Shown here: piece after piece, positions 3,666 through 21,289 of the stretch | Layout: the number at the start of each line of letters is the position of its first letter | How positions within the stretch are numbered: position 1 is the first letter of the stretch | DNA from: a virus | DNA length: 64,000 nt | Strand: one strand, 5' to 3' | Virus record (IMG/VR): IMGVR_UViG_3300043446_003513 | Span: 32,001-96,000 of that record | Position numbers and translations under genes: made by a program | Notes under the pieces: generated by a model | Told to the model about the DNA's origin: nothing | Databases searched by the model: none | The model's input: only the letters and a program-made list of their open reading frames with translations

Positions 3666-4382
3666 ATGAAACTCAAACGCTCTAACGATAGGAAGGTCGC
3701 TAATGCGGTATCGAAAAACGGAAAAACACCCGCTATTGCTAATACTTTTGGGCTACCTGCTGGGAAGAATTTCTCATGTCCTGGCGCTACTAGCGTATGC
3801 GAAAGTGTCTGCTACGCAGGAAAGCTTGAAAAACTCTACAAAGGAGTAAAAAATAATCTTCTCCATAACTGGGAATTACTAAAAGACGCTGATTTTGATA
3901 GCATGCTCTTATTGCTTGACGATATGATTGTAGATTTCATTGATGATTGCACTAAGCGTAATGCGCCTAAATTATTCCGCATTCATTGGGATGGCGATTT
4001 CTTCTCCGATACTTATGCGTACGCATGGCGTGTAATTATTACTAATCACCCAGATGTTCAATTCTGGGTATACACTCGTGTAAAGTCTGCCGCCGAGATT
4101 CTTCAAGGCATTGAAAACTTATCTCTTTATTATTCTACCGATTCAGAAAATAAAGATATCGCTCAAGAATTATCTAATAAGGGCGTAAAGCTTGCATACC
4201 TTGCTACAACTTTTGCAATGGCAAAGGAAGACATGCTAAACCTTATCGGAAAGTCTGGTGTAAAGTGTCCTGAGAATAATAAAAAGATTCCGCTAATATC
4301 AGTCAACGGGTCTGCGTGTGTTACTTGCGGGCAATGCGTATATGAGCGTAACGATATTCTATTCTCCGCAACTAAAAAATAA
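3666..4382 (+). CDS. gp88-like Fe-S/radical-SAM-like phage protein
   Basis: CPGATSVCESVCYA and RIHWDGDF motifs, C-terminal C...CxxCxxC. Confidence 0.75.
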   Translation: MKLKRSNDRKVANAVSKNGKTPAIANTFGLPAGKNFSCPGATSVCESVCYAGKLEKLYKGVKNNLLHNWELLKDADFDSMLLLLDDMIVDFIDDCTKRNAPKLFRIHWDGDFFSDTYAYAWRVIITNHPDVQFWVYTRVKSAAEILQGIENLSLYYSTDSENKDIAQELSNKGVKLAYLATTFAMAKEDMLNLIGKSGVKCPENNKKIPLISVNGSACVTCGQCVYERNDILFSATKK

Positions 4383-4671
4383 GGAAGGAAAAATAAATGG
4401 ATCAAGATGTAAAAGATTGGGAAGATCGTATAGAGCTCTCTCATATTGAACAATTAGAAAAGTTTGGCTGGTGTGTTTGCGAAGATACAAATGGAGAAGG
4501 CCAAATGGCAGAGGATTGCCCTCCTAATTAGGAGGGCCCACTATTTTGGGGGGTCTTGTCAAGTGTTACGGACATCACATTTATTTTCCTGGATTGCCTT
4601 TACAAATGTCGGTGGGGTCGAGTATAATATACCCATAACTTCATACAACTACTATCGAAAGGAAATGCCAC

Positions 4672-5091
4672 ATGGCAAGAGGTAAAGCAATAAATGTAAA
4701 GATTGCCACAGCAAAGGTAATCAAAGCACTAGAAACAAAGTTAGCACAAATCAAAAAAGACAAGGCTAACCAAAAATCTAACGAGGAAAAGTATAAGAAG
4801 GAAGTTGAGAAGTGGGGCAAAGAACTTGCCAAACTTGCGCTTACTAAAATTAGTAAGGCAGAAAATCTTTCTGCCACTACGCGATATAACAATGATGTTT
4901 ATATCAACTTTACTTTACCTGCTGGAACCATCACAGTACCTGATGAGCCCGAAAGAAATTTCGAGGTAATTTATGACCACAACTATCGTGAGATGGTAGA
5001 GGAAATTGAGAACGCAATTCGTATTCTCAAAATGACCGACGAGGAAACAGTAAGCACCTCAACTTACAACTCTATCGCTAAATATCTCTAA
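4672..5091 (+). CDS. hypothetical protein (coiled-coil N-terminus)
   Basis: TTTACA-18-TATAAT promoter, CGAAAGGAA RBS. Confidence 0.8.
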   Translation: MARGKAINVKIATAKVIKALETKLAQIKKDKANQKSNEEKYKKEVEKWGKELAKLALTKISKAENLSATTRYNNDVYINFTLPAGTITVPDEPERNFEVIYDHNYREMVEEIENAIRILKMTDEETVSTSTYNSIAKYL

Positions 5092-5097
5092 CTAGAA

Positions 5098-5126
5098 TTG
5101 GGGAGGGACACGGACACCCTCCCCAA
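5098..5126 (+). other. GC-rich hairpin after CDS (terminator-like, no U tract)
   Basis: TTGGGGAGGG...CCCTCCCCAA. Confidence 0.6.
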
Positions 5127-5179
5127 ATATCCGCTAGGCGGTTTGGTGCTGAGCAACACCTAAGGTAAAAATGGCTACC

Positions 5180-5277
5180 TCACCTGAGTATGTGAAGGCT
5201 AAACTACTCACCAAGTGTATCTCCCAGTGCCATGGCGAGGGAGGCAGTTCCTGAGCATGAACTGAAACTGCTCACCA
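5180..5277 (+). ncRNA. two tandem H-type pseudoknot motifs (5180-5210, 5245-5274), each ending in ACCA
   Basis: TCAC/GTGA plus TGAGTA/TACTCA; CAGTTC/GAACTG plus TGAGCA/TGCTCA; both stems covary. Confidence 0.65.
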
Positions 5278-5296
5278 CTACTAACAAAGGAAAGAA

Positions 5297-5557
5297 ATGG
5301 CAAACCGATATCGAGTAGAGATATTCGACGAAATGAAGTCAAACGATTTGACGATTTACTCAGATACAAATGTTGATAAGGATTTACTAACTGAAATGGT
5401 ATTTAGTAATATCAGCAAGTTTGAGGGAAATATCAGCGCATTCGTTTATGATAATGAAAAAAAGAAAAAGACAACTGTTCTAATCCTTCCTTGGGAAACT
5501 GTAAGAAACATCAACTCCAAAATTCGTTGGGGATATGAGGCGCTGGGTCTCTCCTGA
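5297..5557 (+). CDS. hypothetical protein
   Basis: RBS AAAGGAAAG, ORF track. Confidence 0.75.
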   Translation: MANRYRVEIFDEMKSNDLTIYSDTNVDKDLLTEMVFSNISKFEGNISAFVYDNEKKKKTTVLILPWETVRNINSKIRWGYEALGLS

Positions 5558-5685
5558 GATCCAGTTGCCCACGTTTTTGTGGCCACATTTTATCTGTTAC
5601 GTACGCGATCAACATTCCCCAAAATAAGCTTTACAATGTCGTACCCTGCTGATATAATTCAACTAATCTAATCGAAAGGAAACCA

Positions 5686-6693
5686 ATGGCTCATAATCTC
5701 GAAGTCGAGAATGGCGAAGTTGCTTTTGCGCTACGCGGAACCCCCGCTTGGCACAATCTCGCCAATCGTATTTTCTCACAAGATGAGGAAGTATCTACAC
5801 AAACAATGCTATCAGAAGCGAAACTATCTAATTGGGATGTTCGCCTATCTCCAGTAACCGACCACATTCCTAGCGAATGGAATGATGTTAGCGGGGCACA
5901 ATATGTTCTTCGTACTAACCCATTCAATCAAGGAACTGATGTTCTATCCGTAGTTGGTTCTCGCTATCAAGTAATTCAGAATGAAGATTTATTTTCGTTT
6001 GCTGATAATGTTCTTGACGGGGATTCCCGTTGCGCTTGGGAATCTGCTGGTTCTCTAAAGAATGGTAAAGTTGTATTCGGCTCTCTTACTGTTCCCCGCG
6101 AAATGGTGTTAGACCCACAAGGTGCTAACGATACAACTAAACTGTATCTTATCGTTTGGACTTCACACGATGGTTCTGTTGCGGTTCAGGCAGCAATTAC
6201 TCCTGTTCGTGTTGTATGCCAAAATACTCTCAATCTTGCTATGCGTAACGCTAAACAATCATTCAAGATTCGCCACACGCAGACCGCTGACGGCAAGATT
6301 CAAGTTGCCCGCGAAACCCTCGGACTTACATTCGGATATTTTGATGAGTTTGAGAAACAAGCGCAGGAACTATTCAAGCAAGAGATTTCCGACAAGGATT
6401 TTTCTAAACTGCTAACCACTATCTATCCTAAGCCAGAGGCTGACGCTAAAAATGCTCTCAAGCGTTGGGAAAATAAAGTCGTATTGCTTGATGACCTTTA
6501 TTTCAATTCACCTACCAATGCTAACATCAAGGGCACAAAGTGGGGAGCGTTCAATGCGCTAACTGAACGCCTTGATTATTTCCGTTCAACTCGTAAGAGC
6601 AATACGGAATCTAAATGGGCTTCCGCTTCAGGGTTTGACCCAATCATTACTGCCGAAAAGAATAAGATTCTTCAGGTTGTAAAAGCGTTCTAG
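5686..6693 (+). CDS. DUF932 / phage-plasmid-like protein (TIGR03299-type)
   Basis: MAHNLE...PAWH, ESAGSLKNG, TSHDGS, TPVRVVCQNTL, IRHT, GTKWGAFNALTE motifs. Confidence 0.85.
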   Translation: MAHNLEVENGEVAFALRGTPAWHNLANRIFSQDEEVSTQTMLSEAKLSNWDVRLSPVTDHIPSEWNDVSGAQYVLRTNPFNQGTDVLSVVGSRYQVIQNEDLFSFADNVLDGDSRCAWESAGSLKNGKVVFGSLTVPREMVLDPQGANDTTKLYLIVWTSHDGSVAVQAAITPVRVVCQNTLNLAMRNAKQSFKIRHTQTADGKIQVARETLGLTFGYFDEFEKQAQELFKQEISDKDFSKLLTTIYPKPEADAKNALKRWENKVVLLDDLYFNSPTNANIKGTKWGAFNALTERLDYFRSTRKSNTESKWASASGFDPIITAEKNKILQVVKAF

Positions 6694-6699
6694 TACGCA

Positions 6700-6726
6700 A
6701 CTCCTGGGTATGAGTATAAACTGCCT
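6700..6726 (+). ncRNA. third pseudoknot motif copy, 4 nt upstream of tRNA-Asp
   Basis: ACTC-CTGGGTA-T-GAGT-ATAAAC-TGCCT. Confidence 0.6.
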
Positions 6727-6730
6727 TCCT

Positions 6731-6803
6731 GGCCCATTAGCTTAGCGGTTAAAGCGCTACCCTGTCACGGTAGAGATCGTCGGTTCAAATCCGATATGGG
6801 TCG
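6731..6803 (+). tRNA. tRNA-Asp (GTC)
   Basis: cloverleaf GGCCCAT/ATGGGTC, anticodon arm CTACC-CTGTCAC-GGTAG, T-loop TTCAAAT; no encoded CCA. Confidence 0.92.
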
Positions 6804-6920
6804 CCCCCAAAATCATGGGTGCAAAAATGCTTTTACGCAACCCAAAAATATTTTCCCGAAATGCTTGATATTGTCAGTGGCCTCGTGTATACTTCTGCCA
6901 ACAGAACGAAAGGAATAAAT

Positions 6921-7382
6921 ATGGACGAGTTTGTAGAGTTATCATATGATGAGTGGGTAGATACTTATAGGCCTATCAAAAATCATATTGACCCAAATGC
7001 TTCTATGGACGGCTATATGTTTGAGACGTATGATTCAGAGAAAGACTTTGTAAAGCAATCTTTCCCCGAATATATTTGGACTTATGGCGATGGTGATGAC
7101 GGCGGTATGTATATTTGGAATGGTTATGGAATTGTAAATCGCATTGGTTATTTTGTAACTGAGATTCCTTGCCCGCCAAAAACTACTATTCAGGTATTGG
7201 TATCTCATAACTGGTATTACTGCGAGAGCTGCGGTTCAGAAACAGAAGACCCAGATAATCTAATTAGAGATTCATTTCAGGATATTGACTTAGATAAGTG
7301 TCCTAACTGTGCTACCGCTGAGGAGCTAACAACCGCTGGCTTTACTCAAATAAGAGAAGGGCTCTGGAGCGTGGGTCAGTAA
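6921..7382 (+). CDS. hypothetical protein with C-terminal zinc ribbon
   Basis: start refined after AACGAAAGGAA; CESC...CPNC. Confidence 0.75.
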   Translation: MDEFVELSYDEWVDTYRPIKNHIDPNASMDGYMFETYDSEKDFVKQSFPEYIWTYGDGDDGGMYIWNGYGIVNRIGYFVTEIPCPPKTTIQVLVSHNWYYCESCGSETEDPDNLIRDSFQDIDLDKCPNCATAEELTTAGFTQIREGLWSVGQ

Positions 7383-7460
7383 TGACCCACAGGATCGTGG
7401 CGAGACTTGTGCTTGTCAGTGGCAACTGCTATACTACACCCAATCAACGAAAGGAAGGCA

Positions 7461-7883
7461 ATGTACCAAGACAATAACCCAATTGTCGATAAACCGATAC
7501 CGACATTGGAAGAGCAATACAAGCAAGAAATGGAATTAAGATATGGTAGCGAAATTACTATATTAAACAATAAGTTACACGACCGTAATCAACGCATATC
7601 TGATTTCAACACTAACATCAACGCTGTTCGTGATTATCTAGTTGAGAATTATGATGAACTAGAAGGTCACGCTGATTCTATCGCCGACCTTCTTGGCGTA
7701 GATTTAACTAAAACAACTACTTTCACAGTTGTCGCAACTTACACAGTTGAAATTACTCACGACATTAATCATTTGCCAACTGACTTTGATTTCGCAATTG
7801 GTTGGTCTAATGGACTTGAATACAATGGTGAAGGCGACATTGAAATTATTGATTCAGACATAACTGAGATTCACGAGGTATAA
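7461..7883 (+). CDS. hypothetical protein
   Basis: start refined after AACGAAAGGAAG. Confidence 0.75.
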   Translation: MYQDNNPIVDKPIPTLEEQYKQEMELRYGSEITILNNKLHDRNQRISDFNTNINAVRDYLVENYDELEGHADSIADLLGVDLTKTTTFTVVATYTVEITHDINHLPTDFDFAIGWSNGLEYNGEGDIEIIDSDITEIHEV

Positions 7884-21018: not shown

Positions 21019-21052
21019 TATATGAATATTATACCGTAATTTATTTAATTAA

Positions 21053-21289
21053 TTAAATTAATAGCTCTGAAGCGGAAATTTCTTCGCCAATATATCTCTT
21101 TTTTAATACAAAATCCTTAACAGAATCCGCACCGTTTTGCCTTCCAGCAATGATTACAGCCCACCTTGGTTCAAATTTAGATTCAATGCAGGTTTCACAC
21201 ATTAATAGATTAATAGAAAGCAAGGAAGACTTTTTTACATTTAACTTATTCTTAGTCTTATTACATGAATAACACAATATTTTTTCCAC
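21053..21289 (-). CDS. zinc-binding hypothetical protein
   Basis: CYSC...CETC. Confidence 0.7.
   Translation of the reverse strand: MEKILCYSCNKTKNKLNVKKSSLLSINLLMCETCIESKFEPRWAVIIAGRQNGADSVKDFVLKKRYIGEEISASELLI

Follow-up and report, generated by a model that had tools for sequence, protein, structure and literature searches.

A widespread, uncatalogued H-type RNA pseudoknot at gene boundaries of phage and bacterial genomes, with a possible role as a roadblock inside transcripts

Our analysis of a 64,000-nucleotide (nt) stretch of phage DNA (the window, i.e., bases 32001-96000 of the 106,679-bp IMG/VR phage record IMGVR_UViG_3300043446_003513, which has direct terminal repeats; positions below are those of the window) revealed that three copies of a small element in it belong to a family of H-type RNA pseudoknots (~28 nt) that is very widespread and has no catalogue entry. 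The fold is established as a real H-type pseudoknot under RNA-level selection, and copies of it (hereafter, the knot) sit on the coding strand just past gene ends, in slots where relatives may carry a hairpin instead. With middling confidence, and by analogy with known viral RNAs, we propose that the knot acts as a protein-free boundary roadblock that would mark and protect the ends of message segments.

All three window copies follow one plan: a first stem (S1) of 4-6 bp, an 8-nt loop of the form C-UGRGYA-U, the returning strand of S1, a linker (L3) ending in AAAC, and six bases that pair with loop positions 2-7 to form a second stem (S2), with the first loop base, C, as L1. They are listed here together with a nearby hairpin that had been put forward as a fourth copy.

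5180-5210, + strand: PK1, with S1 at 5180-5183/5192-5195 (TCAC/GTGA), L1 C5184, and S2 at 5185-5190/5205-5210 (TGAGTA/TACTCA)
5245-5274, + strand: PK2, with S1 at 5245-5250/5259-5264 (CAGTTC/GAACTG), L1 C, and S2 at 5252-5257/5269-5274 (TGAGCA/TGCTCA)
6700-6727, + strand: PK3, with S1 at 6700-6703/6712-6715 (ACTC/GAGT), S2 at 6705-6710/6722-6727 (TGGGTA/TGCCTT), and L3 ATAAAC
5145-5160, + strand: 4-bp hairpin GGTG/CACC with loop CTGAGCAA, around CTGAGCA; not a family member

In PK1, the junction nucleotide is T and L3 (5196-5204) reads AGGCTAAAC, with CCA directly after the knot, while L3 of PK2 is (TG)AAAC and its outer S1 pairs, (CA)/(TG), flank a GTTC/GAAC core. Five of the six S2 pairs form in PK3, two of them G-U, and this copy itself carries an A-U to G-C compensation. 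The preliminary description of this DNA had named three clean copies and a degenerate one. The clean copies were found at the same coordinates both by a check of the sequence and by a covariance model, R1, that was built from 100 copies in other loci and none from the window's own genome (PK2, 41.6 bits, E 1.6e-8; PK3, 34.3 bits, E 1e-6; PK1, 24.5 bits, E 2.8e-4; next-best match in the window, E 0.34). Further, a strict pattern applied to the whole 106.7-kb genome gave 3 forward, 0 reverse, and 0 control matches. The supposed fourth copy did not survive: it is a hairpin only, lacking the C-G closing pair, AAAC, and the 3' strand, is matched neither by R1 (E<=10) nor by a relaxed descriptor, and is at best a relic, that is, a decayed copy. 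The 7-mer CTGRGYA has ~10 background matches on the same strand of the window, and a search for further diverged copies in the same genome yielded noise (20 and 16 matches to the relaxed descriptor vs 27 and 34 on reversed sequence).

The H-type pseudoknot is established by compensatory change in S1 and S2, each examined in tests that did not select for pairing. S1 has 4 bp and is free in sequence apart from the C-G pair next to the loop. Among 133 distinct copies, its three variable pairs, absent from the search pattern, form in 99, 98, and 83% (42-46% after shuffling), and all four Watson-Crick pair types are represented. The loop-closing G, also unspecified in the pattern, is present in 128 of the 133, and the C-G pair in 100/100 aligned copies, which were chosen by a descriptor that required it. 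S2 has 6 bp, UGAGYA with URCUCA, followed by one junction nucleotide, usually U, and L3 is NN-AAAC. For the test of S2, candidates were picked by S1, L1, and AAAC alone, with no pairing between loop and tail required. Five or six of the six pairs form in 213/213 candidates with a canonical loop; among those with a non-canonical loop, 17/106 form all six and 6/106 form five, compared with 0/95 and 3/95 in the reversed-sequence control. Double changes include TGGACA/TGTCCA, TGAACA/TGTTCA, TAAGCA/TGCTTA, TAGACA/TGTCTA, and TGGGCG/CGCCCA. The alignment of 100 copies, in which 98% of cells pair vs 22-41% with a slid partner and 8/10 pairs have changed on both sides, was picked by a descriptor requiring pairing and is thus not an independent test. 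L1 is a single C, as in all three window copies; every search pattern fixed this base, and its conservation is thus not measurable from counts. Hence, the compensatory changes and RNA-level selection that had been read from three copies are confirmed across the family. Judging by luteovirus-type knots, L3 probably lies in the minor groove of S1. The UGA in the loop is not kept as a stop codon, given that UGG, UAA, and UAG variants exist.

The family extends far beyond the window. A scan of IMG/VR with CCTGAGYAT-N6-16-AAACTRCTC returned at least 120 loci, and the same 24-nt spacing recurs in 111/140 matches of this pattern, among the matches listed. With a stricter 25-nt pattern and one genome per prokaryotic species, at least 119 bacterial or archaeal contigs were matched, for which we estimate ~4 chance matches. 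The carriers listed include many Saccharibacteria/Patescibacteria, Weissella, Nocardia, Nostoc, Anaerolineae, and Aminicenantes, as well as several Proteobacteria and Bacteroidota and two archaeal metagenome-assembled genomes (MAGs). Among cultured phages, a BLAST search of GenBank phages with one 32-nt copy matched Mycobacterium phage Labelle, Nostoc phage NMeng1, Synechococcus phages S-EIVl and S-H35, Microcystis phage Mwe-JY13, Lactobacillus phage phiEF-1.1, Arthrobacter phage Molivia, and Paracoccus, Bacillus, Moorella, and Vibrio phages, along with 83 Staphylococcus phage records. Sequences were read for Labelle, Staphylococcus phage B166, S-EIVl, phiEF-1.1, and one Vibrio phage only, so that the other carriers stand as BLAST matches with pairing unchecked. 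In B166, S2 is cut to 4 bp, and the other Staphylococcus rows listed have identity and coverage equal to those of B166.

None of this is catalogued. The preliminary description did not recognise the family, and it is in no Rfam entry: Rfam 15 gave no match at gathering thresholds for the window, nor at E<=10 for positions 5000-6900. A literature search with motif sequences (CCUGAGCAUG, AAACUGCUCA, and similar) found unrelated primers only, and the motif is absent from the text of a survey of structured phage RNAs (PMC10690425). Thus, an element with hundreds of matches across many host phyla and in cultured Mycobacterium, Lactobacillus, and cyanobacterial phages has no catalogue entry, and it may be among the commonest structured RNA elements of phage genomes.

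Several features of individual carriers deserve mention on their own account. The degenerate B166 copy (L243:1498-1535; record positions 21039-21076) has the loop CUUAGCAU, 4 S2 pairs, and then UUUUUAUUAU, and separates a minor head gene from the genes for the scaffold and the major capsid protein. In the record, the element bears the label of a BPROM-predicted promoter, which matters for annotation. The canonical copy of phiEF-1.1 (L253:698-740) has the same S1 as the B166 copy, a similar 3' flank, and an equivalent place. Copy number changes quickly in the window's lineage: the three knots of the window compare with up to 6 in its relatives, where locus L105 has 6 copies in ~6 kb, L052 and L184 have 4 each, and a knot stands at nearly every boundary of the same gene block. 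In seven Saccharibacteria/Patescibacteria loci (L242, L240, L178, L172, L140, L164, and L170), the knot mostly lies 4-8 nt past the stop of a DUF3768 gene (checked with Pfam in five; L240 and L172 were left out of that scan), and in L140 and L170 a convergent open reading frame (ORF) is directly behind it. Saccharibacteria genomes have at least three other conserved knot loci, whose adjoining genes have no Pfam family. Twelve bacterial MAG contigs (such as L202) share a class of tiny stand-alone genes, each comprising an ORF of ~20 codons (consensus M-K-R-F-T-x-P-R-x-A-H-C-x-E-G-C-x-x-K-S) with its own sigma-70-like promoter and Shine-Dalgarno sequence. The ORF stops at the UGA inside the knot loop or at a UAG 3 nt ahead, often with an intrinsic terminator after it. 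Unlike elsewhere, a ribosome must melt the knot to terminate on these ORFs. A large upstream noncoding RNA that we had considered for bacterial loci was rejected: Rfam gave no match, and the conserved stretch is the ~20-codon ORF.

The placement of the knot follows rules that are best laid out alongside the window's own neighbouring features.

4672-5091, + strand: orf139, from the ORF list, function unassigned; the gene upstream of the PK1/PK2 spacer
5098-5126, + strand: GC-rich 10-bp hairpin from the minimum free energy (MFE) fold, 6 nt past the orf139 stop, without a U-tract
5220-5244, + strand: hairpin TCTCCC...GGGAGG from the MFE fold, between PK1 and PK2 and abutting PK2
5297-5557, + strand: orf86, from the ORF list, function unassigned; the gene downstream of PK2
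5686-6693, + strand: phrog_1221 gene ("DUF932"), PHROG match E 1.4e-100, followed by PK3
6730-6806, + strand: tRNA-Asp (GTC) by ARAGORN, with an Rfam tRNA match of 68.7 bits at 6731-6803, directly 3' of PK3

Across the family, a same-strand gene ends within 200 nt upstream of 102/115 viral and 64/91 bacterial intergenic copies, and flanking genes are convergent in 21 cases vs divergent in 5. Except for two bacterial copies at 4 nt, S1 starts no closer than ~5 nt to the upstream stop, and this floor is also the most frequent spacing (5 nt in 17/87 viral and 18/59 bacterial copies). The entry channel of the ribosome reportedly holds a length of mRNA equal to this floor, a finding attributed to Takyar, Hickerson and Noller in 2005. 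Given that the floor corresponds to the mRNA held beyond the A-site codon, a terminating ribosome need not melt the knot. The rule of a co-oriented, intergenic copy at least ~5 nt past a stop holds for the window copies: the spacing from the stop is 6 nt for PK3 (after DUF932) and 88 and 153 nt for PK1 and PK2 (after orf139), and the orthologs of PK2 lie 5-11 nt past theirs. Downstream, the next start codon most often lies 19-34 nt past the knot, the intervening stretch containing a Shine-Dalgarno sequence, and the 3' end of PK2 is 22 nt before the orf86 ATG.

The knot is also found directly before elements that create RNA ends. The adjacency of PK3 to the tRNA, pointed out in the preliminary description, is real, as PK3 ends 3 nt before G6731 (the tRNA-Asp 5' end according to Rfam; ARAGORN starts at 6730), and it recurs family-wide. 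Ten copies lie 2-27 nt upstream of a same-strand tRNA, while none lies within 30 nt downstream of one. In 6/10 of these cases, the tRNA is tRNA-Asp; among those that could be placed, several share the DUF932-knot-tRNA-Asp order, which is conserved in relatives, and hence about five cases are independent. In two bacterial MAG contigs, from Polynucleobacter (L129:7541-7617, minus strand; RF00008, 50.5 bits) and Saccharimonadales (L152), the 3' edge of the knot is also where a type III hammerhead starts, with the predicted cut 5 nt past the knot in our reading of L129. Both of these knots share S1 ACAC/GTGT, and the hammerhead-knot pair may therefore be one mobile unit.

The 26 nt past the knot are less structured than sequence at control offsets (mean MFE -1.2 vs -2.1 to -3.1 kcal/mol), and a U-tract (at least 6 of 8) follows directly in 30/200 copies vs 0-7/200 (mean ~3) at control offsets. 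Such tracts are least frequent between convergent genes (8%) and most frequent where a downstream gene is close (33-37%), and so they do not mark the ends of transcription units. We accordingly set aside the U-tract as a proof of termination: its enrichment is real, but it is not concentrated at those ends. A promoter at a fixed distance ahead of the knot left no signal in 131 aligned upstream flanks. The genes on either side are diverse. Those upstream include phrog_1221/DUF932 (9), Hsp20 (4), ribonucleotide reductase (3), and various head proteins, and those downstream include SNase-like nuclease (6), HNH endonuclease, endonuclease VII, integrase, and primase. No decisive enrichment of particular gene families emerged, and the flanking genes in Saccharibacteria, Nostoc, and others are mostly without a Pfam family, except for DUF3768 and DUF7249.

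Comparison of orthologous slots revealed what may take the place of the knot and with which neighbour it is inherited. At least 20 loci share part of the order GP88-like gene, orf139, orf86, DUF932, and tRNA-Asp. In the slot past orf139, most relatives have a knot 5-11 nt from the stop, while L080, L013, and the window have a GC hairpin instead, and the window's knots between orf139 and orf86 sit further downstream than those of its relatives; by this comparison, PK2 is the ortholog of the relatives' knot between orf139 and the next gene. In the slot past DUF932, most relatives again have a knot, and a GC hairpin with a U-tract is found in L091 and L030. The closest relative among the loci compared is L091 (79% protein identity), in which the hairpin is followed by GTTTTTATTTGG; in L029, a knot is followed by TCTTTTTATTTGG, and tRNA-Asp is directly next in both. 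A similar exchange is seen independently in cultured phages: the Labelle knot (L244:1495-1530) lies 6 nt past the gene 85 stop, with tRNA-Gln after another ~180 nt, and the same slot of phage Patience (L250:2496-2553) holds a 9-bp hairpin directly before a different tRNA-Gln. Nucleotide homology between Labelle and Patience stops at the end of the upstream gene, so that the knot marks a mosaic junction. Together, these swaps in orthologous slots indicate that the knot is positionally interchangeable with hairpins that end or cap messages.

As for inheritance, variable knot positions in the PK2 slot track the downstream 150 nt (partial Mantel r 0.55, p = 2e-4) and not the upstream 300 nt (r 0.02, p = 0.37), whereas in the slot past DUF932 the knot is linked to neither side. 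Among pairs of loci that share homology, S1 is identical in 24% when the homology is upstream only, 31% when it is downstream only, and 65% when it is on both sides, against a baseline of 4%. The knot is thus a module able to travel with either neighbour.

How might such a module be used? In the model we favour, the knot would be a compact, protein-independent boundary roadblock inside phage transcripts. Lying just outside the footprint of a ribosome that terminates on the upstream gene, it would stay folded and would stop RNA-tracking enzymes, namely exoribonucleases and possibly ribosomes, and the ends of message segments would thereby be defined and protected. Specifically, RNase P cleavage at tRNA-Asp would give the DUF932 message a 3' end made up of PK3 and a 3-nt tail, and PK3 would serve as a 3' cap. 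PK1, PK2, and the two hairpins would form a multi-barrier spacer between orf139 and orf86, with a barrier ahead of orf86; PK2, whose inheritance goes with that of the orf86 cassette, may thus protect the orf86 message on its 5' side. Of the options in the preliminary description, a block to 5'-3' exonucleases such as RNase J is the one that gained strength, through the resemblance to a viral RNA, coremin, that is described below.

The evidence on which side is served is divided. Adjacency to tRNAs and hammerheads, convergent gene ends, and the hairpin swaps all point to a 3' role. Several observations weigh against the roadblock model, mainly as contradictions in direction. PK1 and PK2 lie behind orf139's own hairpin, and PK2 is close to orf86; the phiEF-1.1 knot has a canonical terminator on its upstream side and the scaffold and major capsid genes on its downstream side, with the degenerate Staphylococcus copy in the equivalent place; and the PK2-slot linkage is to the downstream cassette. 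All of these point to a 5' role, and the family-wide linkage is about equal to both flanks (24% vs 31% identical S1). Nor does the knot usually have the second hairpin of coremin, as a stable hairpin starts within 4 nt past it in 2/198 copies vs 10-18/198 at control offsets. Finally, the strong sequence conservation of S2 is not obviously needed by a mechanical barrier, which makes a conserved binding partner possible.

Three other explanations deserve weighing against the roadblock model. In a translational insulator, which we consider unlikely, the knot would block ribosomes and not nucleases: seated at the channel entrance of a terminating ribosome, it would prevent post-termination sliding and re-initiation, break the coupling between the two cistrons, and keep the next ribosome-binding site free of structure in a defined context. 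The ~5-nt floor matches the spacer of frameshift-stimulating knots, the knot-to-start peak leaves room for a Shine-Dalgarno sequence, and the downstream flank is unusually unstructured and is U-rich mostly where a gene follows closely. Further, Watson-Crick variants of coremin resist ribosomes, as judged by stimulated frameshifting, without the second hairpin (hp2) that they need against Xrn1 (PMC10321173), which keeps a reading of the knot as a ribosome roadblock alive. An insulator leaves unexplained those copies that precede a tRNA or a hammerhead, stand at convergent gene ends, or have no feature in the next 200 nt.

A pseudoknot-type intrinsic terminator or attenuator, in which S2 would form as its 3' strand leaves RNA polymerase and the following U-tract would release part of the transcripts, strikes us as quite improbable. 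It could draw on the U-tract enrichment given above, on the U-tract that the L091 terminator hairpin and the L029 knot have in common in the same slot, and on the TTTTTATTAT that follows the B166 copy. However, no window copy has such a tract (they are followed by CCAAGU, CCACUA, and CCUGGC), only 15-28% of the family has one and 72-85% has none, the tracts are at their lowest at convergent ends, tRNAs 2-13 nt downstream must be co-transcribed through the knot, and S2 is short and GC-poor. We rate about as low the chance that the knot recruits or guides a conserved endoribonuclease or RNA-binding protein, for instance as a guide structure for RNase Y/E or a pseudo-substrate of RNase P, and would thereby punctuate polycistronic RNA in the manner of the T7 RNase III sites. 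In favour of this, the sequences of S2, L1, and AAAC show strong conservation from phylum to phylum, unlike the freely varying S1, the downstream flank is single-stranded and A/U-rich, and some relatives have a knot at nearly every gene boundary (e.g., the 6 copies in L105). The RNase Y of Staphylococcus aureus is also said, in work by Marincola and Wolz from 2017, to need a downstream structure. Against such a guide, the host range (Patescibacteria, Actinobacteria, Firmicutes, Cyanobacteria, Proteobacteria, and some archaeal MAGs) exceeds that of any single endonuclease except RNase P, an NCCA tail of the RNase P type is not conserved, and coremin works without a protein partner.

The remaining suggestions of the preliminary description, namely an aminoacylatable tRNA-like end, a ToxI-like antitoxin or decoy, a riboswitch aptamer, and a self-cleaving element, have in our view a very small chance of being right. 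PK1 and PK2 do both end in ACCA, as had been observed, and stand in tandem, and the architecture resembles that of preQ1-I, in which a hairpin loop pairs with the tail past an A-rich stretch. However, ACCA is found in only 9/133 copies and ACC in 21/133, frequencies that are explained by independent base preferences at each position: the first A is the sixth S2 pair (A in 77%), the next positions are merely C/U-rich, and the tails of relatives are CA-rich spacers such as CCAACCAAC. As for a ToxI-like type III toxin-antitoxin system, PADLOC gave no defence or toxin match for the neighbouring orf86, orf139, DUF932, orf153, and orf73, and across hundreds of unrelated genomes the copies are scattered over gene ends. 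A ligand-binding RNA fits poorly with several copies in one genome, placed between genes unrelated to each other, and with the absence of an Rfam match at E<=10. Self-cleavage found no support, and the genuine hammerhead beside the knot in two loci suggests that the knot itself does not cut. The same holds for recoding, with no slippery site or extended frame at hand.

The region of the window that holds the knots (4500-7500) looks like an early gene block with strong sigma-70-like promoters, although these were identified by consensus scan only.

5630-5658, + strand: sigma-70-like promoter TTTACA-17-TATAAT with TG, from the consensus scan only, upstream of DUF932

Similar matches lie at 4599-4628 and 6865-6893. 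The spacer between orf139 and orf86 is 205 nt long and holds PK1, PK2, and the hairpins at 5098-5126 and 5220-5244. Searches of Pfam and PHROG with orf139 and orf86 gave no match; homologs of orf139 are found in at least 20 related phage loci. The name DUF932 for the phrog_1221 gene is a presumptive label; the best matches of its protein among cultured phages are in Streptomyces phages (such as Jay2Jay, Bmoc, and Mildred21; ~50% amino acid identity). GC-rich hairpins occur at gene ends of the window, one without a U-tract (5098-5126) and one with a U-rich tail (4518-4537), and gene-end GC hairpins without a U-tract are a style common in actinobacterial systems. The GP88-like gene (3666-4382) matches Pfam GP88 (PF17338), a family name that we take to come from a mycobacteriophage protein.

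Among known systems, the -1 frameshift knots of luteovirids (beet western yellows virus and potato leafroll virus) share with the phage knot a length of ~28 nt, an L1 of 1-2 nt with C, an extruded junction U, an A-rich L3 with an AAAC-like end by a short S1, and a spacing of 5-9 nt from the A-site codon. They differ in that the phage knot follows stop codons, has an S2 of 6 bp vs 3 bp, and has no overlapping reading frame. No X_XXY_YYZ heptamer lies upstream of any copy, and the -1 frames close after 7 and 26 codons. With 3' stabiliser hairpins, terminators, and T7 RNase III sites, the knot shares its slot, in that GC hairpins and terminators replace it in orthologous loci, and its position just upstream of sites that make 3' ends (tRNA 5' ends, a hammerhead, and U-tracts); it differs in being a pseudoknot of conserved sequence, mostly without a U-tract. 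Unlike the RNase III sites of phage T7 early RNA, it has, to our knowledge, no known processing enzyme. The preQ1-I aptamer (RF00522) is likewise an H-type fold of ~30 nt whose hairpin loop pairs with the tail past an A-rich stretch, but the knot has no Rfam match and occurs in several copies per genome between unrelated genes, and its L2 is cut to 1 nt, so that it has no ligand pocket like that of preQ1-I. The tRNA-like end of turnip yellow mosaic virus is also a pseudoknotted coaxial stack followed by ACCA, as in two window copies; beyond the rarity of ACCA in the family, the phage knot has no further tRNA-like arms and is internal and not terminal.

The closest likeness is to coremin, or xrRNA-C, an exoribonuclease-resistant RNA (xrRNA) of beny-, cucumo-, and many other eukaryotic RNA viruses (PMC6546385, PMC10520033, PMC10321173). 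Coremin (GUCCGAAGACGUUAAACUAC) has a 4-bp hairpin with a C-G closing pair, a loop that begins with C, a spacer UUAAAC followed by UAC, and an obligatory hp2; it stalls Xrn1 and scanning ribosomes and stimulates frameshifting, and a pseudoknot between its loop and spacer has been inferred (PMC10520033, PMC10321173). A defining trait of coremin is that a 5'-3' exoribonuclease stops one nucleotide ahead of its first hairpin (hp1). The phage knot shares the 4-bp hairpin with the loop-proximal C-G, the single C, UUAAAC, and U(A/G)C, and 12 phage or bacterial copies match 15/16 non-loop coremin positions. Tandem repeats and a position just past stop codons or between genes are further common traits. 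The coremin spacer (G)UUAAACUAC has its equivalent in the family's NN-AAAC-U(A/G)C, with UU the commonest NN, and in the window's CUAAAC-UAC (PK1), UGAAAC-UGC (PK2), and AUAAAC-UGC (PK3). In the loop, where the coremin consensus is YGAD/YGNNAD and the phage sequence CUGAGYAU, the ends (Y...A-D) fit but the G falls on position 3. Of the loops assayed for coremin, the closest is the heptaloop CGAGUAA, which resists Xrn1 (PMC10520033) and almost equals the phage loop, CUGAGUA(U/A), and an SPlV5 variant pairs GGAG/CUCA where the phage knot pairs UGAG/CUCA.

There are also clear differences. The 8-nt loop of the phage knot gives a canonical S2 of 6 bp, whereas the coremin contact is one of 3 nt and largely non-canonical. 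The phage knot is mostly without hp2, which Xrn1 resistance of coremin requires (PMC10520033); hp2-like exceptions are a UUCG hairpin past the knot in four relatives of this phage (L018, L047, L066, and L075), UUUU/UUUA loops in two others (L071 and L019), and PK3, which is followed by the tRNA acceptor stem. Finally, the knot occurs in DNA phages and bacteria, where the enzymes are RNase J and RNase E and not Xrn1. We thus describe the knot as resembling coremin, and do not file it as a member, although it may work like it. A stronger form of this comparison, which we hold only tentatively and consider rather doubtful, is that the knot would be to bacteria and DNA phages what the coremin xrRNA is to eukaryotic RNA viruses: a directional roadblock that needs no protein and would segment long phage and bacterial transcripts by stability and stop RNase J-type exonucleases, RNase E scanning, or ribosomes. 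If it did block nucleases or ribosomes in this way, the knot would give bacterial RNA decay its first described xrRNA-like element, would account for different gene levels within one phage operon, and would offer a 28-nt portable insulator for synthetic biology. As a counterpart of coremin, it would further mean that the same minimal fold is used from plant viruses to phages.

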